In this document: piece by piece, positions 1 through 9,726 of the stretch | How positions within the stretch are numbered: position 1 is the first letter of the stretch | How the letters are laid out: every line of letters begins with the position of its first letter | Assembly (NCBI GenBank): GCA_000004985.1 | Contig: GG739034.1 | Reading direction: 5' to 3' (one strand) | From: Naegleria gruberi | Taxonomy: Eukaryota | Length of the DNA stretch: 9,731 bases | The notes under the pieces: model-generated | Seen by the model: only the letters and a program-made list of their open reading frames with translations | The model's database searches: none | Told to the model about the DNA's origin: nothing | Made by a program: the position numbers and the translations under genes

Positions 1-149
1 TGGACATGTTGCTATTTTTTCGGCAAATTAAATGTTATAACTTTTAAAAACGATGCGATTGAGCTCCTGAAAGGTTTGTGGTTGACTGTGAAAACTGTTC
101 AATTCGCAATAAAAAAATTGAAAAGATCTCACCCCGTTGACAATAAATC
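1..149 (+). promoter_or_regulatory. 5' flanking / putative promoter and 5'UTR of the 150..1232 gene
   Basis: Non-coding, AT-rich stretch directly upstream of the first ATG in a good context (aaatcATGg); A-runs (aataaaaaaattgaaaag) as seen upstream of dictyostelid-type genes. No specific motif verified. Confidence 0.3.
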
Positions 150-1232
150 ATGGTTAATAGTAGTGAGCCTAATAGGAAACAAATTGAAGAAGAGCACAAC
201 AACACACTTTATCAATGGTTTCTAGATCTTGGTAGAGCAATCCAAAAAGCTGGCACAGATGATAATCCCTTTGGTAAATTGCACTCGTTAGTTTCCTCAC
301 AACAGTGGTATATTGACGCCACAAAATTTGTTTTTGATCCACCCAAAGCAGAATACAAACACAGATATGTTCTTGTACTTATTTCCAATTTAAAGACTTT
401 GATTGTTAATTCTGAAGTTTTAATTCAGAAAAAAGATGAAATTGTCGAAAAACAAGTTGCAGAAGCTAGTATCAGAGCTTTGGAAGAAAAATATTTGGGA
501 TTTAAGAAATCAATCAAAGCACAACAAAACTCATTGCAAAAGCCAAGAGAAGCTTCATTGATAGCATTGTTCAACATTTCATTTGGAATTTGGATGGGTT
601 TATTTGTTTTGATGTTGTCCATGGGTTCAAATGTTGGTTTTGCTTACAAAGTTGAGACAACTGCAAATGATTTGGCAAAAGCCATAAACTCTACATTCAT
701 ACCTACTAGCAACATGACACTAAATTCAACATCTAGCAATACCACAAATCACAATGCAGAGATCATTGCAGACATTAATTGGTACATGGCATCAAGAGGA
801 TTCACCAATTTATTCAGCCTTTTCAGTAGCAGTATTGTTCGTATTACAACCTTTTCAATCTTGATTACCATTATTGACTTGTTTCTTGGACTTGAATTTA
901 AGGATTATCTAACCTCTACCTCTTTTAAAAAGAGAAGACAATATTTATTCTTTACTTTTTACATTTCAATTTGTTCTGGATTTTTGGCGCACCTTGTTAT
1001 ATTTGTTGTCTTTGTTGCTTTGTTTAATGGTTTAGTAGTTGGTGCTGGAAGTATGCCCTTTCAAACTTTTGTGTCAGTGGTCAAGTATGCACAGATTGTT
1101 GGCATATTAGGAATGATTTCTGTGTTGTTATTTACTGTTTTCCTTAAAATTTTAATGGTTTGTCAAGTAAGAAAGAGTGAAGATAGATTTGTTGCTAAAA
1201 AACGTAAAGGTTGCTGTCGCTGCTGCTGTTGA
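150..1232 (+). CDS. Hypothetical multi-pass membrane protein (360 aa). N-terminal ~130 aa soluble/charged region, ~5 predicted TM helices, a putative N-glycosylated loop (NSTFIPTSNMTLNSTSSNTTNHN) and a poly-cysteine C-terminus (KRKGCCRCCC)
   Basis: Uninterrupted ORF with ATG at 150 and TGA at 1230-1232, AT-biased codon usage consistent with the other genes. Hydrophobic segments: ASLIALFNISFGIWMGLFVLMLSMG, IVRITTFSILITIIDLFLGL, YLFFTFYISICSGFLAHLVIFVVFVALFNGLVVGAG (probably two helices), IVGILGMISVLLFTVFLKILMV. Basic stretch plus Cys cluster at the extreme C-terminus. No family recognised by eye. Confidence 0.7.
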   Translation: MVNSSEPNRKQIEEEHNNTLYQWFLDLGRAIQKAGTDDNPFGKLHSLVSSQQWYIDATKFVFDPPKAEYKHRYVLVLISNLKTLIVNSEVLIQKKDEIVEKQVAEASIRALEEKYLGFKKSIKAQQNSLQKPREASLIALFNISFGIWMGLFVLMLSMGSNVGFAYKVETTANDLAKAINSTFIPTSNMTLNSTSSNTTNHNAEIIADINWYMASRGFTNLFSLFSSSIVRITTFSILITIIDLFLGLEFKDYLTSTSFKKRRQYLFFTFYISICSGFLAHLVIFVVFVALFNGLVVGAGSMPFQTFVSVVKYAQIVGILGMISVLLFTVFLKILMVCQVRKSEDRFVAKKRKGCCRCCC

Positions 1233-1255: not shown

Positions 1256-3103
1256 TTAAATAAATTCATCAATTCGTATATCTGTATGTCCAGTCATATA
1301 ATTGATTTTTGTTGGTTGTTTTAATTGTGGTATAGCTTCTGGTGAGAAAGCTTTAAGCTTTGGAAAACCTCCAATTCCAGTCAGATATTTAGGTGCCAGA
1401 TTATTGACTATAGGTACTAAAATAGGTGTAATTGTTAAATCTACCCAATAAAGTTCTAAATGTATCAAATTTTTCAGAGATGGTCCAGAATGTAACATAT
1501 CAGTTGCATAAATATCAAATTCATAATAAAAACTCAAATATCTTAATTTTGGAAAATTTGAATGAGCTAAACTTGATGTAAACTTTGAGTCGTATTTGAA
1601 CTTGCCTGAAGGAACTCTTGTAAACTTTAAAGTTTGTAAATTTAGTAAATTTCCCTTGCATAAATATGAAATTCCATCAAATGTAATTTCACTTCCTAAA
1701 TATAATGTTGTCAAGTTACTCATTCTTGATAAATATTTCATTTCTTCACTATCAATGTGTGTTTGAATAATTCGTAAATCAGTTATTTTTGAAAGTTGGG
1801 ATATGTGATTCATACATCCACTTTTCATTACTACTCTTCTTAACTCTAAATAGGTTAGATTTTGAACTTTTTCACAGAATTTTCGTATTACATATTCATC
1901 TATTTCATTTCCTTGTTTTGTATTTAGAATGCATAAATATTTCAAATTAAGAAAGTTACCCTCACTCAATTCAGAGAATGTATTATTGTCAACAGGACCA
2001 ATTTCTAGATGAGTGAGATTATTTTGAAGAGGTAATAAACATCTGTAAGGTAAATCTACTTCCAATTTTGATTGAAAACAAAGTTTTTGGAGTGTATGAA
2101 TTTTTCCAATTTGTTTCATACATTCACTATTTAAATGTGAGTGAAGAAAAGTCAATTCTCTCCATGAATTACCACTATTCAACACATTCATAATTGATTT
2201 TGTAGACATCTCCAAATCTATTGAAAAAGATTCAAGATTTGGTAACATTGAACTATTAATTGGTGCTATGTATGAAATATTGTCTTTTTGAGATGATTCT
2301 GGAGGTCTTGCAACAAAGTTAATATGTTTCAAAGTTCTAATATTTCCTGGTTGAGTCAATAATTGATTAACACCTTCATCTCCAATTCTATTACGAAGTG
2401 TAAGATGTGTTAGACGAGTCAACTTTGATTTGGTCAATACAAGTGTTGCCTTATAATCAAGCCCATTATCAATCAATGTTAGATCTGTTAAATTTAGTAA
2501 ATTAGTACATATAGTTCTTAAATTTTCAACTTCCATTTGAACACTTATTAATTTTAGAGTTGTAATTGGTGAAATATCTTTAGCAGGAATAACAATTGTA
2601 ATAATATTAGTATTTTGTAATGTCAATAATTCCAATTTTTTTGAATTGAATAACCTTTTAAAAAAAGATCTGTTAAGAAAAATAGTTTCCTCAAATTCTG
2701 GAAAAGTTCTTATTTCCATTTGTGAGAATATTTGCAAGAGATCACCTTTCATTAATCCACTCATTTCCTCCTCATCATTTAATGATTCAAATCTGTACCT
2801 TGCTGATTTATGCTTCACATTTACACACTTGATTCCTCTAGTATCACATTCTTTGACAATTCTTCTCCACTCGGAACAAACTCCAGCAAAAGCAATCAAA
2901 GTATGTGAATTAAAATAGGGAACAATAACATTGCAAAATATATCTTGACTCAATTGTAATATTTTAGAATAAATCATCATGTTAATACTATTATCTGTTG
3001 TTGTTGTGCTATTACTATCGGTTGTTGTGTTATTATTGATGGATTGATAGTGGGTACTTTCTCTAGAAAAACAACAGAATGATGGACAACAAGTTGTCAA
3101 CAT
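1256..3103 (-). CDS. F-box / leucine-rich-repeat protein (615 aa), presumptive SCF ubiquitin-ligase substrate-recognition subunit
   Basis: Single long minus-strand ORF (ATG at 3101-3103 in AAAAAAAAAATAAGAGAGCATG context; stop TAA = tta at 1256-1258). N-terminal Asn/Thr-rich low-complexity segment, then an F-box-like motif (ILQLSQDIFCNVIVPYFNSHTLIAFAGVCSEWRRIV; the L..L..IF..L...L.....VCK.WR.I pattern). A long series of leucine-rich repeats of the LxxLxLxxN / cysteine-containing type follows (e.g. LELLTLQNTNI, LRTICTNLLNLTDLTLIDNGLD, LTRLTHLTLRNRIGDEGVNQL, LTYLELRRVVMKSGCMNHISQLSKITDLRI, LQTLKFTRV, LIHLELYWVDL). An alternative start at the internal Met pair (MMIYSKILQ...) is possible. Confidence 0.75.
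   Translation of the reverse strand: MLTTCCPSFCCFSRESTHYQSINNNTTTDSNSTTTTDNSINMMIYSKILQLSQDIFCNVIVPYFNSHTLIAFAGVCSEWRRIVKECDTRGIKCVNVKHKSARYRFESLNDEEEMSGLMKGDLLQIFSQMEIRTFPEFEETIFLNRSFFKRLFNSKKLELLTLQNTNIITIVIPAKDISPITTLKLISVQMEVENLRTICTNLLNLTDLTLIDNGLDYKATLVLTKSKLTRLTHLTLRNRIGDEGVNQLLTQPGNIRTLKHINFVARPPESSQKDNISYIAPINSSMLPNLESFSIDLEMSTKSIMNVLNSGNSWRELTFLHSHLNSECMKQIGKIHTLQKLCFQSKLEVDLPYRCLLPLQNNLTHLEIGPVDNNTFSELSEGNFLNLKYLCILNTKQGNEIDEYVIRKFCEKVQNLTYLELRRVVMKSGCMNHISQLSKITDLRIIQTHIDSEEMKYLSRMSNLTTLYLGSEITFDGISYLCKGNLLNLQTLKFTRVPSGKFKYDSKFTSSLAHSNFPKLRYLSFYYEFDIYATDMLHSGPSLKNLIHLELYWVDLTITPILVPIVNNLAPKYLTGIGGFPKLKAFSPEAIPQLKQPTKINYMTGHTDIRIDEFI
1259..1264 (+). terminator. AATAAA polyadenylation-signal candidate for the 150..1232 gene, located inside the last codons of the convergent minus-strand gene
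   Basis: aataaa at 1259-1264, 27 nt past the TGA of gene 1. The reverse-complement hexamer tttatt (AATAAA on the minus strand) sits at 1252-1257, overlapping the minus-strand stop codon (tta at 1256-1258). Confidence 0.3.
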
Positions 3104-3245: not shown

Positions 3246-3479
3246 ATGAAGAGAGCTCGAGATGAAATGAGAAGCGCAAACAACATTGTCCTGTTATTAT
3301 TCTTGTTGATGATGATGACAATCTTTTCCACAACAACAACAGCAGCAACTACAAGTTCCACCACTAAATTATCATATATTTCAACAATTGCAGGAAGTGG
3401 ATTAATGGCAGCAGCAGGTATGGAAGGAGATGGTGGTTTGGCTATTAATGCCCAATTAATTCTCCCTCCTATTCAATAA
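3246..3479 (+). CDS. 5' end of a secreted/surface protein gene: signal peptide plus first NHL-repeat-like motif. Probably a partial exon or a fragment truncated by sequence problems at the gap edge
   Basis: ATG at 3246 (second in-frame ATG at 3267). MRSANNIVLLLFLLMMMTIFS is a textbook signal peptide (basic n-region, Leu/Met-rich h-region), followed by a Thr-rich linker. Then STIAGSGLMAAAGMEGDGGLAINAQL matches the core of the NHL-type beta-propeller repeat (IAG.G..G..GDGG.A..A.L..P.G), where G/D/N-rich blade continues in known NHL repeats. The ORF stops (TAA 3477-3479) only 5 nt before the N run, which would be premature for an NHL blade. This suggests a frameshift or low-quality bases at the contig edge, or an unrecognised intron. 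Confidence 0.5.
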   Translation: MKRARDEMRSANNIVLLLFLLMMMTIFSTTTTAATTSSTTKLSYISTIAGSGLMAAAGMEGDGGLAINAQLILPPIQ

Positions 3480-3484
3480 TATTT

Positions 3485-6400
3485 NNNNNNNNNNNNNNNN
3501 NNNNNNNNNNNNNNNNNNNNNNNNNNNNNNNNNNNNNNNNNNNNNNNNNNNNNNNNNNNNNNNNNNNNNNNNNNNNNNNNNNNNNNNNNNNNNNNNNNNN
3601 NNNNNNNNNNNNNNNNNNNNNNNNNNNNNNNNNNNNNNNNNNNNNNNNNNNNNNNNNNNNNNNNNNNNNNNNNNNNNNNNNNNNNNNNNNNNNNNNNNNN
3701 NNNNNNNNNNNNNNNNNNNNNNNNNNNNNNNNNNNNNNNNNNNNNNNNNNNNNNNNNNNNNNNNNNNNNNNNNNNNNNNNNNNNNNNNNNNNNNNNNNNN
3801 NNNNNNNNNNNNNNNNNNNNNNNNNNNNNNNNNNNNNNNNNNNNNNNNNNNNNNNNNNNNNNNNNNNNNNNNNNNNNNNNNNNNNNNNNNNNNNNNNNNN
3901 NNNNNNNNNNNNNNNNNNNNNNNNNNNNNNNNNNNNNNNNNNNNNNNNNNNNNNNNNNNNNNNNNNNNNNNNNNNNNNNNNNNNNNNNNNNNNNNNNNNN
4001 NNNNNNNNNNNNNNNNNNNNNNNNNNNNNNNNNNNNNNNNNNNNNNNNNNNNNNNNNNNNNNNNNNNNNNNNNNNNNNNNNNNNNNNNNNNNNNNNNNNN
4101 NNNNNNNNNNNNNNNNNNNNNNNNNNNNNNNNNNNNNNNNNNNNNNNNNNNNNNNNNNNNNNNNNNNNNNNNNNNNNNNNNNNNNNNNNNNNNNNNNNNN
4201 NNNNNNNNNNNNNNNNNNNNNNNNNNNNNNNNNNNNNNNNNNNNNNNNNNNNNNNNNNNNNNNNNNNNNNNNNNNNNNNNNNNNNNNNNNNNNNNNNNNN
4301 NNNNNNNNNNNNNNNNNNNNNNNNNNNNNNNNNNNNNNNNNNNNNNNNNNNNNNNNNNNNNNNNNNNNNNNNNNNNNNNNNNNNNNNNNNNNNNNNNNNN
4401 NNNNNNNNNNNNNNNNNNNNNNNNNNNNNNNNNNNNNNNNNNNNNNNNNNNNNNNNNNNNNNNNNNNNNNNNNNNNNNNNNNNNNNNNNNNNNNNNNNNN
4501 NNNNNNNNNNNNNNNNNNNNNNNNNNNNNNNNNNNNNNNNNNNNNNNNNNNNNNNNNNNNNNNNNNNNNNNNNNNNNNNNNNNNNNNNNNNNNNNNNNNN
4601 NNNNNNNNNNNNNNNNNNNNNNNNNNNNNNNNNNNNNNNNNNNNNNNNNNNNNNNNNNNNNNNNNNNNNNNNNNNNNNNNNNNNNNNNNNNNNNNNNNNN
4701 NNNNNNNNNNNNNNNNNNNNNNNNNNNNNNNNNNNNNNNNNNNNNNNNNNNNNNNNNNNNNNNNNNNNNNNNNNNNNNNNNNNNNNNNNNNNNNNNNNNN
4801 NNNNNNNNNNNNNNNNNNNNNNNNNNNNNNNNNNNNNNNNNNNNNNNNNNNNNNNNNNNNNNNNNNNNNNNNNNNNNNNNNNNNNNNNNNNNNNNNNNNN
4901 NNNNNNNNNNNNNNNNNNNNNNNNNNNNNNNNNNNNNNNNNNNNNNNNNNNNNNNNNNNNNNNNNNNNNNNNNNNNNNNNNNNNNNNNNNNNNNNNNNNN
5001 NNNNNNNNNNNNNNNNNNNNNNNNNNNNNNNNNNNNNNNNNNNNNNNNNNNNNNNNNNNNNNNNNNNNNNNNNNNNNNNNNNNNNNNNNNNNNNNNNNNN
5101 NNNNNNNNNNNNNNNNNNNNNNNNNNNNNNNNNNNNNNNNNNNNNNNNNNNNNNNNNNNNNNNNNNNNNNNNNNNNNNNNNNNNNNNNNNNNNNNNNNNN
5201 NNNNNNNNNNNNNNNNNNNNNNNNNNNNNNNNNNNNNNNNNNNNNNNNNNNNNNNNNNNNNNNNNNNNNNNNNNNNNNNNNNNNNNNNNNNNNNNNNNNN
5301 NNNNNNNNNNNNNNNNNNNNNNNNNNNNNNNNNNNNNNNNNNNNNNNNNNNNNNNNNNNNNNNNNNNNNNNNNNNNNNNNNNNNNNNNNNNNNNNNNNNN
5401 NNNNNNNNNNNNNNNNNNNNNNNNNNNNNNNNNNNNNNNNNNNNNNNNNNNNNNNNNNNNNNNNNNNNNNNNNNNNNNNNNNNNNNNNNNNNNNNNNNNN
5501 NNNNNNNNNNNNNNNNNNNNNNNNNNNNNNNNNNNNNNNNNNNNNNNNNNNNNNNNNNNNNNNNNNNNNNNNNNNNNNNNNNNNNNNNNNNNNNNNNNNN
5601 NNNNNNNNNNNNNNNNNNNNNNNNNNNNNNNNNNNNNNNNNNNNNNNNNNNNNNNNNNNNNNNNNNNNNNNNNNNNNNNNNNNNNNNNNNNNNNNNNNNN
5701 NNNNNNNNNNNNNNNNNNNNNNNNNNNNNNNNNNNNNNNNNNNNNNNNNNNNNNNNNNNNNNNNNNNNNNNNNNNNNNNNNNNNNNNNNNNNNNNNNNNN
5801 NNNNNNNNNNNNNNNNNNNNNNNNNNNNNNNNNNNNNNNNNNNNNNNNNNNNNNNNNNNNNNNNNNNNNNNNNNNNNNNNNNNNNNNNNNNNNNNNNNNN
5901 NNNNNNNNNNNNNNNNNNNNNNNNNNNNNNNNNNNNNNNNNNNNNNNNNNNNNNNNNNNNNNNNNNNNNNNNNNNNNNNNNNNNNNNNNNNNNNNNNNNN
6001 NNNNNNNNNNNNNNNNNNNNNNNNNNNNNNNNNNNNNNNNNNNNNNNNNNNNNNNNNNNNNNNNNNNNNNNNNNNNNNNNNNNNNNNNNNNNNNNNNNNN
6101 NNNNNNNNNNNNNNNNNNNNNNNNNNNNNNNNNNNNNNNNNNNNNNNNNNNNNNNNNNNNNNNNNNNNNNNNNNNNNNNNNNNNNNNNNNNNNNNNNNNN
6201 NNNNNNNNNNNNNNNNNNNNNNNNNNNNNNNNNNNNNNNNNNNNNNNNNNNNNNNNNNNNNNNNNNNNNNNNNNNNNNNNNNNNNNNNNNNNNNNNNNNN
6301 NNNNNNNNNNNNNNNNNNNNNNNNNNNNNNNNNNNNNNNNNNNNNNNNNNNNNNNNNNNNNNNNNNNNNNNNNNNNNNNNNNNNNNNNNNNNNNNNNNNN

Positions 6401-7624
6401 NNNNNNNNNNNNNNNNNNNNNNNNNNNNNNNNNNNNNNNNNNNNNNNNNNNNNNNNNNNNNNNNNNNNNNNNNNNNNNNNNNNNNNNNNNNNNNNNNNNN
6501 NNNNNNNNNNNNNNNNNNNNNNNNNNNNNNNNNNNNNNNNNNNNNNNNNNNNNNNNNNNNNNNNNNNNNNNNNNNNNNNNNNNNNNNNNNNNNNNNNNNN
6601 NNNNNNNNNNNNNNNNNNNNNNNNNNNNNNNNNNNNNNNNNNNNNNNNNNNNNNNNNNNNNNNNNNNNNNNNNNNNNNNNNNNNNNNNNNNNNNNNNNNN
6701 NNNNNNNNNNNNNNNNNNNNNNNNNNNNNNNNNNNNNNNNNNNNNNNNNNNNNNNNNNNNNNNNNNNNNNNNNNNNNNNNNNNNNNNNNNNNNNNNNNNN
6801 NNNNNNNNNNNNNNNNNNNNNNNNNNNNNNNNNNNNNNNNNNNNNNNNNNNNNNNNNNNNNNNNNNNNNNNNNNNNNNNNNNNNNNNNNNNNNNNNNNNN
6901 NNNNNNNNNNNNNNNNNNNNNNNNNNNNNNNNNNNNNNNNNNNNNNNNNNNNNNNNNNNNNNNNNNNNNNNNNNNNNNNNNNNNNNNNNNNNNNNNNNNN
7001 NNNNNNNNNNNNNNNNNNNNNNNNNNNNNNNNNNNNNNNNNNNNNNNNNNNNNNNNNNNNNNNNNNNNNNNNNNNNNNNNNNNNNNNNNNNNNNNNNNNN
7101 NNNNNNNNNNNNNNNNNNNNNNNNNNNNNNNNNNNNNNNNNNNNNNNNNNNNNNNNNNNNNNNNNNNNNNNNNNNNNNNNNNNNNNNNNNNNNNNNNNNN
7201 NNNNNNNNNNNNNNNNNNNNNNNNNNNNNNNNNNNNNNNNNNNNNNNNNNNNNNNNNNNNNNNNNNNNNNNNNNNNNNNNNNNNNNNNNNNNNNNNNNNN
7301 NNNNNNNNNNNNNNNNNNNNNNNNNNNNNNNNNNNNNNNNNNNNNNNNNNNNNNNNNNNNNNNNNNNNNNNNNNNNNNNNNNNNNNNNNNNNNNNNNNNN
7401 NNNNNNNNNNNNNNNNNNNNNNNNNNNNNNNNNNNNNNNNNNNNNNNNNNNNNNNNNNNNNNNNNNNNNNNNNNNNNNNNNNNNNNNNNNNNNNNNNNNN
7501 NNNNNNNNNNNNNNNNNNNNNNNNNNNNNNNNNNNNNNNNNNNNNNNNNNNNNNNNNNNNNNNNNNNNNNNNNNNNNNNNNNNNNNNNNNNNNNNNNNNN
7601 NNNNNNNNNNNNNNNNNNNNNNNN
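3485..7624. other. Assembly gap (4,140 consecutive N)
   Basis: Uninterrupted run of n from 3485 to 7624. Coding sequence runs right up to both edges on the + strand, so the gap lies inside or between + strand coding sequence. Confidence 0.99.
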
Positions 7625-7626
7625 TA

Positions 7627-8880
7627 TGTAGTGGTATAATTTCCACTAATATATCTGTTTGTAGTAGAAAGGGTGATTGTATTGGTGCCAATCTTTGTAT
7701 CTGTTTAACTGGTTGGGGAGGTGAAGATTGTTCCACACCAATTTGTAATAATATTCTATCTACCAATGCTACTACCAATACTGATAGTAATGGAACTATA
7801 GTTAGCAATAATACATTGGTGTGTAGTGGACATGGTGAATGTACTAGTCCAAATCAATGCAATTGTAATTTAAATTGGGGTGGTAAACAATGTGAAATAC
7901 CTAAATGTCAAGGTATATTGGCTAGCAATGAGGCAGTTTGCAACTCTAGAGGAAAATGTGTCAATGAAAATCAATGTCAATGTAATGAAATGTGGGGAGG
8001 TCAATTTTGTGAAATTCCATTTTGTAATGGAACTTTAGCAACTGATTCAAATGTGTGTAATTCATTGGGAGTATGTGTTGGTCCAAATCAATGTAAATGT
8101 CTCTCAGGTTGGGGTGGTAAACTATGTACAATACCATCATGTAATGGAATTCTTGCATTTGATGAGAATGAAGTGTGTATCGCAAAGAGTAATGCATGTA
8201 GTGGAAATGGAAAGTGTATTGATCTTAATCGATGCAAATGTGAGAAAGGTTGGACTGGTCCATTATGTTCAACACCAACATGTAATGGAACATCGGCTAC
8301 TGACCTAACTGTATGTAATGGTTTTGGAGTGTGTGTTGCACCAGATAAGTGTAATTGTTATAGAGATTGGGGAGGTGAATTTTGTACCATTCCAACATGT
8401 AATGGAACTTTAGCCACAGATCCAACAGTATGTAACTCGAGGGGTATTTGTATTGAGAATGATGAATGTAGGTGCAATTCATGGGGTGGAAAACTATGTG
8501 CAACACCAACATGTAATGGAATTGTTGCCACAGATCCAAACGTGTGCAATTCAAGTGGTGTTTGTGTCGATTTTGATAAGTGTGAATGTTTTTCTGGTTA
8601 TGGAGATGCATTCTGTGGCACTTTAAGTTGTAATAGCATTTTATCCACTCACATTAATGTAGAAGGAGCTGTGTGTAGTGGTCGTGGATTGTGTTTGGGA
8701 CCAAATAAGTGTATCTGTCAACCGAATTGGGGTGGTTTCATGTGTGGCTTTCCAAAATGTTTCGATATTTCAGGAGACAAGAAAGAAGTATGTTCTGGAC
8801 ATGGTGATTGTATAGCAGTTGATACATGTAAATGTTATCAGGGTTATATGGATTATGATTGTAGTAGTGTTGTTCCTGAC
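7627..8880 (+). repeat. Degenerate tandem coding repeat (period ~114-117 nt, with 130-, 141- and 162-nt variants) encoding the EGF-like modules
   Basis: The 'tgtaatgga' (CNG) repeat anchor recurs at 8023, 8140, 8281, 8398 and 8512, with equivalent tgt anchors at 7627, 7744, 7906, 8628 and 8758. Units 8398 and 8512 share longer nucleotide identity (ccaacatgtaatggaa..gccacagatccaa). Other units are conserved mainly at the protein level. Confidence 0.7.
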
Positions 8881-9396
8881 AAGAATTGTGGTGACTCACG
8901 TAGAGGTGCCTCTTTTTGGGATGTTCTTGTGGAAGGTTGGGATTTAATTGGTGATATGGCATCTGGTGCAGCATCTATAGGTAGTTCAATTGGTAATGTT
9001 ATTGAATCCTTAGGAACAGGTTTTATTGACCTTTTTGGAGGAGTTATTCCAAACATTGCAGATATTTTCAGCTCCATTCCAAAATTAATGGAGAAAATTC
9101 TGAACTTTTTGATTAGCACTGCAGAGAAGTTTATTAACTTTATTCTCAATTTGTGGACAACATTTGTTGAATTTATAGAATGGGCAGTGATTTATTTTCC
9201 AAAAATATTTTCTGGAATTACGCTTCAACAAGTGGTAACAGTTTTAGTAATCATTGGTGTTGCACTACTTTTGATCATTATTATAGTATTGTTATCTTTC
9301 CTTAGTCCATATATTACAATTGCACTTCAATTTGTCAAAGGTGTTTCGAGTGCATTAGCAAGTAGTGAAAAAGCTCTTAAGGAGTACAACATGTAG
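7627..9396 (+). CDS. 5'-partial EGF-like-repeat transmembrane protein: at least 10 tenascin-type EGF-like modules, a Gly/Ser-rich amphipathic juxtamembrane region, one C-terminal TM helix (9232..9303) and a ~30-aa cytoplasmic tail
   Basis: Frame-1 reading frame is open from the first base after the gap (tgt at 7627: CSGIISTNISVCSRKGDCIGANLCICLTGWGGEDCSTPICNN...) through TAG at 9394-9396. The ORF track starts at TTG 7816 only because there is no ATG, so the true start lies in or upstream of the gap. Repeating ~39-47-aa units with six Cys in EGF spacing and the signature P.CNG(T).A.D..VCN..G.C.....C.C...WGG..C. TM helix VVTVLVIIGVALLLIIIIVLLSFL followed by SPYITIALQFVKGVSSALASSEKALKEYNM. Codon usage matches neighbouring genes. 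Confidence 0.8.
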   Translation, partial: CSGIISTNISVCSRKGDCIGANLCICLTGWGGEDCSTPICNNILSTNATTNTDSNGTIVSNNTLVCSGHGECTSPNQCNCNLNWGGKQCEIPKCQGILASNEAVCNSRGKCVNENQCQCNEMWGGQFCEIPFCNGTLATDSNVCNSLGVCVGPNQCKCLSGWGGKLCTIPSCNGILAFDENEVCIAKSNACSGNGKCIDLNRCKCEKGWTGPLCSTPTCNGTSATDLTVCNGFGVCVAPDKCNCYRDWGGEFCTIPTCNGTLATDPTVCNSRGICIENDECRCNSWGGKLCATPTCNGIVATDPNVCNSSGVCVDFDKCECFSGYGDAFCGTLSCNSILSTHINVEGAVCSGRGLCLGPNKCICQPNWGGFMCGFPKCFDISGDKKEVCSGHGDCIAVDTCKCYQGYMDYDCSSVVPDKNCGDSRRGASFWDVLVEGWDLIGDMASGAASIGSSIGNVIESLGTGFIDLFGGVIPNIADIFSSIPKLMEKILNFLISTAEKFINFILNLWTTFVEFIEWAVIYFPKIFSGITLQQVVTVLVIIGVALLLIIIIVLLSFLSPYITIALQFVKGVSSALASSEKALKEYNM

Positions 9397-9540: not shown

Positions 9541-9726
9541 TTATTTTTTTTTTGTAATGCCATGCAACTTGTTAATATTTCTTATGACCAATAATCCTGT
9601 TTTAAAAGTTCCATCTCTGATTGGTTTTTCTTTAAATAGTCTAGAGTGACAACAAGTTTGTATAAAGTACAAAACAATAGATAAAAGAGAGCATAAAAAC
9701 ATTCCCATAGAAAGATAAATAACCAT
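9541..9726 (-). CDS. Possible short hydrophobic ORF, or first exon of a minus-strand gene whose start lies at the window edge (61 aa)
   Basis: ATG is the reverse complement of cat at 9724-9726 (ccATGg on the + strand), only 5 nt from the window end. Hydrophobic N-terminus MVIYLSMGMFLCSLLSIVLYFI. No upstream context is visible, it overlaps the probable 3'UTR of the EGF gene, and it could be spurious. Confidence 0.15.
   Translation of the reverse strand: MVIYLSMGMFLCSLLSIVLYFIQTCCHSRLFKEKPIRDGTFKTGLLVIRNINKLHGITKKK

Follow-up and report, generated by a model that had tools for sequence, protein, structure and literature searches.

Several predicted proteins of Heterolobosea have N-terminal NHL blades followed by teneurin-type six-Cys EGF modules and a single transmembrane (TM) helix. 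They include C9374_014037 of Naegleria lovaniensis (P0015; 971 aa) and the metagenomic proteins P0027, P0048, and P0069. P0015 and P0069 carry a cytoplasmic kinase; P0027 and P0048 end in a short non-catalytic tail. The NHL-bearing relatives retrieved are 486-971 aa long and have 3-7 EGF modules (13 in P0048). Judging from these predicted proteins, the order NHL -> EGF -> TM, with or without a kinase, is not new, given its presence in N. lovaniensis and in uncultured relatives. Literature on a Naegleria propeller-EGF-TM protein family was searched, including from the NHL/EGF, teneurin, and EGF-kinase angles, and nothing was found.

The stretch of DNA analysed here (the window) is the entire 9,731-bp scaffold of Naegleria gruberi NEG-M and contains a sole N-run, a scaffold gap of 4,140 N (3485..7624, no strand). 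An earlier note had postulated that the sequences flanking this gap are the two ends of one amoebozoan surface protein. The attribution was wrong, as N. gruberi is a heterolobosean (Discoba). Its module calls, a signal peptide and NHL propeller start on the left and a 5'-open teneurin-type EGF array with a TM helix and a short tail on the right, have proved correct, and the order that it proposed is that of the four relatives named above. Since this domain combination is already in databases for Heterolobosea, the argument that the locus is worth characterising as a novelty is weakened. Both pieces are genuine, if unremarkable: one begins an NHL-propeller surface protein, the other ends a membrane protein with EGF repeats, and neither has a gene model in the reference annotation of N. 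gruberi. We put the probability that they belong to one gene, encoding a type-I surface protein that would continue across the gap, at roughly 45%, with the rest going to two genes and a small part of that to a dead 5' remnant.

The piece upstream of the gap

The 5' open reading frame (ORF) begins with a start codon and a signal-peptide-like N-terminus (MKRARDEMRSANN-IVLLLFLLMMMTIF; 3246..3326, plus strand), recognised by translation and hydropathy. In this leader, a charged n-region (MKRARDEMR) precedes a 14-residue hydrophobic core, IVLLLFLLMMMTIF, and the Kyte-Doolittle peak within hydropathy window 8-34 is 2.06. The NHL-EGF relatives P0064 and P0068 also have a short hydrophobic leader, with the first blade directly after it. 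In the translation, a Thr/Ser-rich linker, STTTTAATTSSTT (3327..3365, plus strand), comes next, and after this stretch the ORF reads YISTIAGSGLMAAAGMEGDGGLAINAQL.

An NHL blade-opening motif, KLSYISTIAGSGLMAAAGMEGDGGLAINAQL (3366..3458, plus strand), was detected by blastp and by a custom blade-start HMM, a profile derived from blade-start units of NHL-EGF relatives. The profile gives the 5' piece 19.6 bits as assembled and 27.3 bits when frame-corrected, and the best of about 1,900 shuffled controls reached 9.0 bits. When the piece was compared by blastp with 81 EGF homologues, all matches at E<0.2 were proteins with NHL-type blades, five with a precomputed PF01436 and P0052 with TEN_NHL only. 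Furthermore, the piece contains the linker I-x-T-[IV]-AG-x-G-(x)n-GDGG-x-A-x-x-A-x-L-x-x-P, which precedes each bona fide NHL blade and is shared, as I-x-T-[IV]-AG-x-G...GDGG-x-A...L-x-x-P, with P0015, P0027, P0048, and P0069. By these measures of sequence similarity, the motif is real rather than a product of chance.

The Pfam search that the earlier note had called for gave EGF matches on the 3' piece, described below, and on the 5' side no match to NHL (PF01436) or TEN_NHL (PF25021) in either the 77-aa piece or its frame-corrected 80-aa version, even at E<=10. In relatives, the NHL model starts at the L-N-x-P position (residues 117-143 of P0027 and 167-193 of an ORF at the bacterial metagenome locus L008), and this is where the visible 5' sequence ends. 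Consequently, the missing NHL match has almost no power and is no valid refutation of the motif.

According to the earlier description, no more than 5 nt separate the 5' ORF from the gap. The situation is less simple, because as assembled an in-frame TAA (3477..3479, plus strand) closes it after 77 aa. Splicing would be unable to remove this stop, since there is no GT dinucleotide between 3450 and 3477; an intron using an earlier GT would remove the conserved GDGG...AQL motif, and an intron was thus rejected. A ciliate-type code, in which TAA would be Gln, was also rejected, given that the species is N. gruberi and that the 1,770-nt EGF ORF runs without an in-frame TAA or TAG.

Three-frame translation reveals an alternative frame (+2), NSPSYSIIF (3458..3484, plus strand), that is open to the gap edge. 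With a 1-nt shift into this frame, the ORF reads ...GLAINAQLNSPSYSIIF, which completes the canonical NHL motif. The alternative frame contributes +7.7 bits on the blade HMM, and the frame-corrected GLAINAQLNSP is identical at 11/11 positions to the blade linker of a bacterial NHL protein (the L008 ORF; PF01436, 1.6e-39). Since the shifted frame both stays open to the gap and completes the motif, a single-base indel error at the contig end is the likely cause of the truncation. Thus, NSPSYSIIF is probably the true continuation of the ORF after a 1-nt indel near 3456-3459; it is possible that the 5' piece is a pseudogene.

The piece downstream of the gap

Only one frame, that starting at 7627, is open at the right gap edge, and it ends at a TAG (9394-9396). 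Its first Met is residue 121, which lies inside a module, and it has no leader of its own before that point. Pfam and module parsing reveal ten teneurin/tenascin-type EGF modules (7627..8862, plus strand), 5'-open at the gap edge. The modules are 35-54 aa long, with six Cys each (seven in module 5), and the array contains eight N-x-S/T sequons. Three Pfam models match it above their gathering cut-offs: EGF_2 (PF07974; 2.6e-33, 114.5 bits versus a cut-off of 22.1), EGF_Teneurin (PF23106; 6.8e-33, 112.8 versus 24.3), and EGF_TEN (PF25024; 3.2e-29, 102.6 versus 65). The between-module DNA identity is 45-68%. The idea that near-identical EGF repeats had caused the gap is not supported, as the visible modules share no more than this, those nearer the gap are no more alike than the others, and no tandem repeats are detected in the array by TRF.

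The best-scoring relatives of the 3' piece are P0001 (RCC1-EGF-TM-kinase), P0004 (N. lovaniensis C9374_007192; 47% identity over 39% of the query), P0010 (N. gruberi), and P0008 (Percolomonas). These share with it the module type P-x-C-N-G-x-L-A-T-D-x-x-V-C-N-x-x-G-x-C-x-x-x-x-x-C-x-C-x-x-x-W-G-G-x-x-C, but their N-terminal domain is of another type or absent, the EGF array in the latter case beginning right after the N-terminus, and their C-terminal regions are unrelated to that of the 3' piece. To the NHL-EGF-TM relatives, the sequence identity of the EGF part is merely 36-38%.

Between the array and the TM helix lies a Gly/Ile-rich amphipathic juxtamembrane region of 123 aa (8863..9231, plus strand), an element absent from the earlier note. 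A search of the C-terminal 212 aa against 5.8e9 proteins found no homologue of this region at E<=1e-3. In a full HMMER scan with the last 175 aa, 1.84e9 representatives yielded one match and no real homologue, the match (P0082) being a NACHT-LRR protein whose 'IPHIADAL' repeats produce a spurious hit; neither search retrieved a full-length relative with the same C-terminal end. Single-sequence AlphaFold2 gives the C-terminal region long helices at low confidence (mean pLDDT 61), and the juxtamembrane region is thus predicted to be helical. It occurs in none of P0015, P0027, P0048, and P0069 and, as far as these sequence comparisons reach, this orphan region is the only element of the locus without precedent.

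A single, strong TM helix, VVTVLVIIGVALLLIIIIVLLSFL (9232..9303, plus strand; hydropathy peak 3.58), is followed by a 30-aa C-terminal tail, SPYITIALQFVKGVSSALASSEKALKEYNM, and the TAG stop (together 9304..9396, plus strand), as given by translation. Pfam finds no kinase (no Pkinase match) or other domain in the tail. In this respect, the 3' piece differs from P0015 and P0069 and resembles the kinase-less members P0027 and P0048.

One gene or two

If a single unannotated N. gruberi gene starts with the 5' piece and finishes with the 3' piece, its product would be a member of the receptor-like family of Heterolobosea that combines a beta-propeller, a teneurin-type EGF array, and a single TM helix. 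In this model, the TAA at 3477-3479 is taken as the contig-end error, and the protein would run from the signal peptide through an NHL propeller, of which the first blade linker is visible, and a long EGF stalk of at least ten modules to the helical juxtamembrane region, one TM helix, and the 30-aa tail. As the head of the protein, the propeller would bind the ligand, be it prey, substrate, or another cell, and the disulphide-rich, glycosylated array would form a rigid spacer. Because the tail has no catalytic domain, the protein may act as an adhesion/recognition receptor or co-receptor, unlike its kinase-bearing relatives.

The visible parts all fit such a protein, in the right order and on the same strand of one scaffold, although the 5' ORF carries the TAA as assembled. 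Their ends are complementary: start and leader are present in the 5' piece but a proper end is not, and the 3' piece ends properly and is open on its gap side. In addition, the relatives whose blade starts the 5' piece matches are precisely those in which NHL blades, EGF modules, and a TM helix are combined, and the frame-corrected reading of the piece completes the canonical motif. In N. lovaniensis, 0/6 immediate neighbours of three EGF-family genes are EGF-type. Genes of this family are thus not tandemly clustered there, and a chance same-strand adjacency of an NHL and an EGF gene is not expected. This finding also bears on a rival reading that is quite plausible while falling short of an even chance, namely that two neighbouring surface-protein genes are present, gene A ending in the gap and gene B starting in the gap and ending at 9396. 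Such a layout needs two functionally related family genes side by side on one strand, with both a gene end and a gene start falling inside the gap.

The sizes, however, speak for two genes. With the gap at its stated length, one gene would encode about 2,050 aa, versus 971 aa at most in the NHL-bearing relatives found, and the ten visible modules already exceed the 3-7 of most of these relatives. Gene A would instead encode a signal peptide and an NHL propeller with or without EGF modules, a TM helix, or a kinase (about 500-1,000 aa), and gene B either a leader of its own and the EGF array or another N-terminal domain and the array, so that both would match typical family members. Furthermore, the closest relatives of the EGF array have an RCC1-type N-terminal domain, or begin their EGF part within about 55 residues, rather than having NHL blades. 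Among the best EGF matches, many (P0002, P0005, P0006, P0008, P0011, P0012, and P0018) start the array at residues 34-53; consequently, little extra sequence would be needed for gene B. Gene spacing in the window is also compact (23-142 nt between genes, with ORFs of 1.1-1.8 kb on the flanks), and a 4.1-kb gap would thus have room for the end of one gene, a spacer, and the start of another. No sequence in which both parts are joined, whether as a homologue, an orthologous locus, or a transcript, was retrieved by homology searches or from the N. lovaniensis and N. fowleri loci. Exact look-ups of the window ORFs (360, 615, 573, and 77 aa) gave no match either, in a contig index that apparently does not include the N. 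gruberi genome.

It is also conceivable, but unlikely, that the TAA is real. The NHL start would then be a pseudogene remnant in a region that underwent recent rearrangement or duplication, and the EGF-TM gene would be independent of it. The stop is present in the assembly and has no splice donor to rescue it, and the scaffold lies within recently duplicated sequence. The adjoining LRR gene has three paralogues on a 245-kb scaffold, one of them 98% identical in protein, and a Logan run contains a copy of it with 96.8% identity in DNA. The loci of the LRR orthologue, compared with 10-kb flanks, have no NHL or EGF gene beside it in N. lovaniensis (L001) or N. fowleri (L002); in N. lovaniensis, the 360-aa gene is conserved next to the LRR gene, and an unrelated 138-aa TM protein occupies the divergent position. 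Nevertheless, the 5' ORF is otherwise intact from its ATG through the leader and the NHL motif, and the second frame, open over the last 27 nt, continues this motif perfectly, which is the pattern expected from a single-base contig-end error.

Significance and comparison with teneurins

The main value of this locus lies in curation, as neither piece is annotated and the 5' ORF is cut short by what is probably a single-base error in the scaffold. With the gap closed, the gene catalogue of a model free-living amoeboflagellate would gain one or two surface receptors, and propeller-EGF-TM proteins are candidate receptors for the recognition of prey, substrate, or other cells in Naegleria, including the pathogen N. 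fowleri. With the NHL and EGF combination already in public protein sets for this lineage, the locus alone opens no new question. More tentatively, and with the odds somewhat against it, the sequence may encode an N. gruberi-specific giant of about 2,050 aa, with an NHL propeller, at least 30 EGF modules or further domains, and the new helical juxtamembrane module. If so, its length would be more than double that of every NHL-bearing relative retrieved, and it would represent an independent assembly, in Discoba, of the NHL and EGF pair known from teneurins.

Outside eukaryotes, the blade linker has a close counterpart in bacterial NHL-repeat proteins, encoded by ORFs of the metagenome loci L007 and L008, which carry the near-identical GD[GN]GLAINAQLNSP. 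A back-translated scan with the 5' piece returned bacterial NHL genes only, and an exact 38-mer of the piece has no match in JGI metagenome contigs. However, the bacterial genes are GC-rich and have no EGF array; at L008, the ORF carries an IPT/TIG domain in place of one.

Metazoan teneurins (e.g. Teneurin-3, PDB 8r50) share their module types with the pieces described here: the EGF_Teneurin and EGF_TEN models match the array, which has weak similarity to the Teneurin-3 EGF region (E 6e-5), and the NHL propellers of the relatives match TEN_NHL. The visible 589-aa C-terminal part has no Pfam match to a YD-repeat shell or to Tox-GHH/ABD, although a YD region may lie inside the gap. Teneurins have a type-II topology, their N-terminal domain being cytoplasmic; eight EGF modules precede their NHL propeller, and they also have a YD-repeat shell and end in Tox-GHH. 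The N. gruberi pieces, in contrast, have a type-I topology, given the leader and a TM helix that lies 30 aa before the C-terminus, and, if they form one gene, the NHL propeller would precede the EGF array. On this comparison of domains, teneurins and the N. gruberi sequences have modules in common but belong to different families.

A small composite scaffold and its flanking ORFs

The window corresponds to an entire small scaffold of Naegleria gruberi NEG-M, in which two contigs, of 3,484 and 2,107 bp, are joined across a gap of 4,140 Ns (3485..7624). Repeat collapse was considered as the cause of the gap and is not supported: at 45-68% DNA identity, the EGF modules in view have diverged too far from one another. 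The earlier note had placed the host among the amoebozoans. However, N. gruberi belongs to the Heterolobosea in Discoba, and the adjacent 615-aa ORF (1256..3103, minus strand) matches N. gruberi EFC35768.1 / XP_002668512.1, the F-box/LRR-like gene NAEGRDRAFT_76573 (Pfam LRR_14), with 100% identity from end to end. This gene is multi-copy: three paralogues from its 90%-identity cluster, one of which (P0083) is 98% identical, lie together on a single N. gruberi scaffold of 245 kb (NAEGRDRAFT_74674, 74682, 74692), and a 96.8% identical DNA copy is present in Logan run ERR1078381. An N-terminal extension of 42 aa (MLTTCCPSFCC...) is unique to the window copy. The mini-scaffold could come from a diverged haplotype, or it could be one more copy of a segment that was amplified recently.

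To the left of the LRR gene, an ORF of 360 aa (150..1232, plus strand) contains several hydrophobic stretches and ends in a Cys-rich sequence, GCCRCCC before the stop, that resembles a palmitoylation signal. It has no Pfam match, and its published model must differ, because the protein collection lacks this exact sequence. In N. lovaniensis, homologous sequence that seems to be unannotated (locus L001, 11829..12324, minus strand; 33-41% identity) sits just downstream of the LRR orthologue, and because of this adjacency the LRR and 360-aa pair is syntenic, while the NHL/EGF part is not. The LRR gene is kept in N. lovaniensis and N. fowleri and the 360-aa gene also in N. lovaniensis; no NHL or EGF gene lies beside the orthologous LRR gene in either species. 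At the far end, a 61-aa ORF with a hydrophobic N-terminus (9541..9726, minus strand) starts 5 nt inside the end of the scaffold. Instead of being a small gene in full, it may belong to the 3' part of a gene that extends beyond the scaffold. The practical yield is annotation and assembly correction for N. gruberi.

The sequences bordering the gap

The only frame open at the right gap edge starts at 7627 and extends for 589 codons to a TAG (9394-9396). As previously described, it is a 5'-open EGF-repeat ORF ending in a TM helix and a tail. It comprises ten modules (35-54 aa; six Cys each, seven in module 5) with eight N-x-S/T sequons, a single, very hydrophobic TM helix (9232..9303, plus strand; hydropathy 3.58), and a 30-aa C-terminal tail without a domain. 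Since the earliest Met, residue 121, falls within a module, this piece is truly 5'-incomplete. The first description missed a Gly/Ile-rich amphipathic region of 123 aa (8863..9231, plus strand) between the array and the TM helix. No homologue of this region was found among 5.8e9 proteins, and 1.84e9 cluster representatives gave a single, spurious match. It contains small-xxx-small motifs (GAASIGSSIG, GTGFIDLFGG) and is predicted to be all-helical; for the sequence that follows the array, single-sequence AlphaFold2 gives three long helices with low confidence (mean pLDDT 61).

To the left of the gap, translation from the ATG at 3246 gives MKRARDEMRSANNIVLLLFLLMMMTIFSTTTTAATTSSTTKLSYISTIAGSGLMAAAGMEGDGGLAINAQLILPPIQ followed by a stop. 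Its N-terminus is built like a signal peptide, with a charged n-region, a 14-residue hydrophobic core (hydropathy peak 2.06), and a polar Thr/Ser stretch. The signal-peptide-like start and the NHL opening motif stand, but the ORF does not simply run on to within 5 nt of the gap: an in-frame TAA (3477-3479), which the earlier note does not mention, closes it. An intron cannot restore the frame, because GT is absent between 3450 and the stop and the nearest upstream GTs fall in conserved GDGG codons. The +2 frame from 3458 reads NSPSYSIIF and is open up to the gap edge, and one added A in TTAATT (3456-3461) would yield ...GDGGLAINAQLNSPSYSIIF. The stop is most simply explained by an indel of one base at the contig end; a genuine pseudogene is a less probable explanation.

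Pfam searches matched EGF models to the right-hand piece (EGF_2, 2.6e-33; EGF_Teneurin, 6.8e-33; EGF_TEN, 3.2e-29), whereas the expected NHL match to the left-hand piece was absent for both NHL and TEN_NHL. This negative has little power, because the visible sequence ends at L-N-x-P, the position at which these models start in bona fide NHL proteins (117-143 in the relative P0027; 167-193 in an ORF of the bacterial locus L008). A custom blade-start profile, made from 22 units of six NHL-EGF relatives, scores the left-hand piece at 19.6 bits as assembled and 27.3 bits when frame-corrected; the top score among about 1,900 shuffles is 9.0 bits. When the 81 proteins that the right-hand piece alone had retrieved were searched by blastp, all matches with E<0.2 were to proteins with NHL-type blades (P0027, P0015, P0069, P0068, P0064, P0052). 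Furthermore, a back-translated metagenome scan with the left-hand piece turned up bacterial NHL proteins whose linker, GDNGLAINAQLNSPVGVAVD, is identical at 11/11 positions to the frame-corrected GLAINAQLNSP. Because these lines agree, the NHL blade-opening motif is real.

One gene or two

We assign somewhat less than even odds, roughly 0.45, to the two pieces being one gene. Their ends are complementary and on the same strand, and the NHL-EGF-TM architecture has precedents among relatives. In addition, none of the six immediate neighbors of EGF-family genes at three N. lovaniensis loci is EGF-type, so an NHL gene and an EGF gene would not be expected to stand side by side by chance. Against one gene stand the stop codon as assembled and the product of ~2,050 aa with the stated gap, versus 486-971 aa and 3-13 EGF modules in NHL-bearing relatives, a length comparison that is weakened because the search may not show long proteins. 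(All 85 proteins retrieved as homologues have at most 1,027 aa, and teneurins, tenascins, and Notch are absent from them, which suggests a length limit.) Most of the closest array relatives bear an RCC1-type domain at the N-terminus, or else their EGF array begins no more than ~55 residues from it.

Two intact genes are only slightly less probable than one. The local genome is compact (spacers of 23-142 nt, ORFs of 1.1-1.8 kb), so a 4.1-kb gap easily hides a gene end and a gene start; the complementary ends and the neighbor count speak the other way. A dead 5' remnant beside an independent EGF gene would account for the stop, but is the least likely of the three readings. No relative sharing the C-terminal region was found among the 5.8e9 proteins or 1.84e9 representatives, and metagenome scans gave no N. 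gruberi-like contig.

Relatives, proposed role, and comparison with teneurins

The best matches to the right-hand piece are heterolobosean or seemingly so: N. lovaniensis (47% identity, 39% of the query covered), N. gruberi, Percolomonas, and metagenomic and EukProt proteins, with no dictyostelid among the named matches. The family is combinatorial: the N-terminal domain is of RCC1, NHL, or Kelch type or goes undetected, the teneurin-type EGF array and a single TM helix come next, and some members add a kinase. The proposed order of NHL, EGF, and TM is plausible, as it is present in P0015 (N. lovaniensis C9374_014037; NHL blades, 7 EGF, TM, kinase), P0027 (NHL, 6 EGF, TM, short tail), P0048 (NHL, 13 EGF, TM, short tail), and P0069 (NHL, 3 EGF, TM, kinase). 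Since these modules and their order already exist in the lineage, the locus would be a new, unannotated example of a known heterolobosean architecture, not a new type.

Elsewhere in N. lovaniensis, small called genes start 33 nt past the stop of the EGF-array gene P0013 (L006, 12586..13065; weak match to GPS, the GPCR proteolysis site) and 18 nt past that of P0004 (L005, 12748..13527). Both may belong to longer EGF-...-GPS proteins whose gene models were split.

From the visible parts, a propeller head would bind ligand, the disulphide-rich, glycosylated EGF array would form a stalk, and a helical membrane-proximal segment would lead into the single TM helix and a short non-catalytic tail. The surface protein or proteins would serve as a receptor in adhesion or recognition, or as a co-receptor. 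Kinase-bearing relatives (P0001, P0015, P0069) would be able to signal alone, which the kinase-less protein of the window would not. Nor is it a teneurin: in contrast to teneurins, it has type I topology and reversed module order, and its visible sequence includes neither a YD nor a Tox-GHH part.
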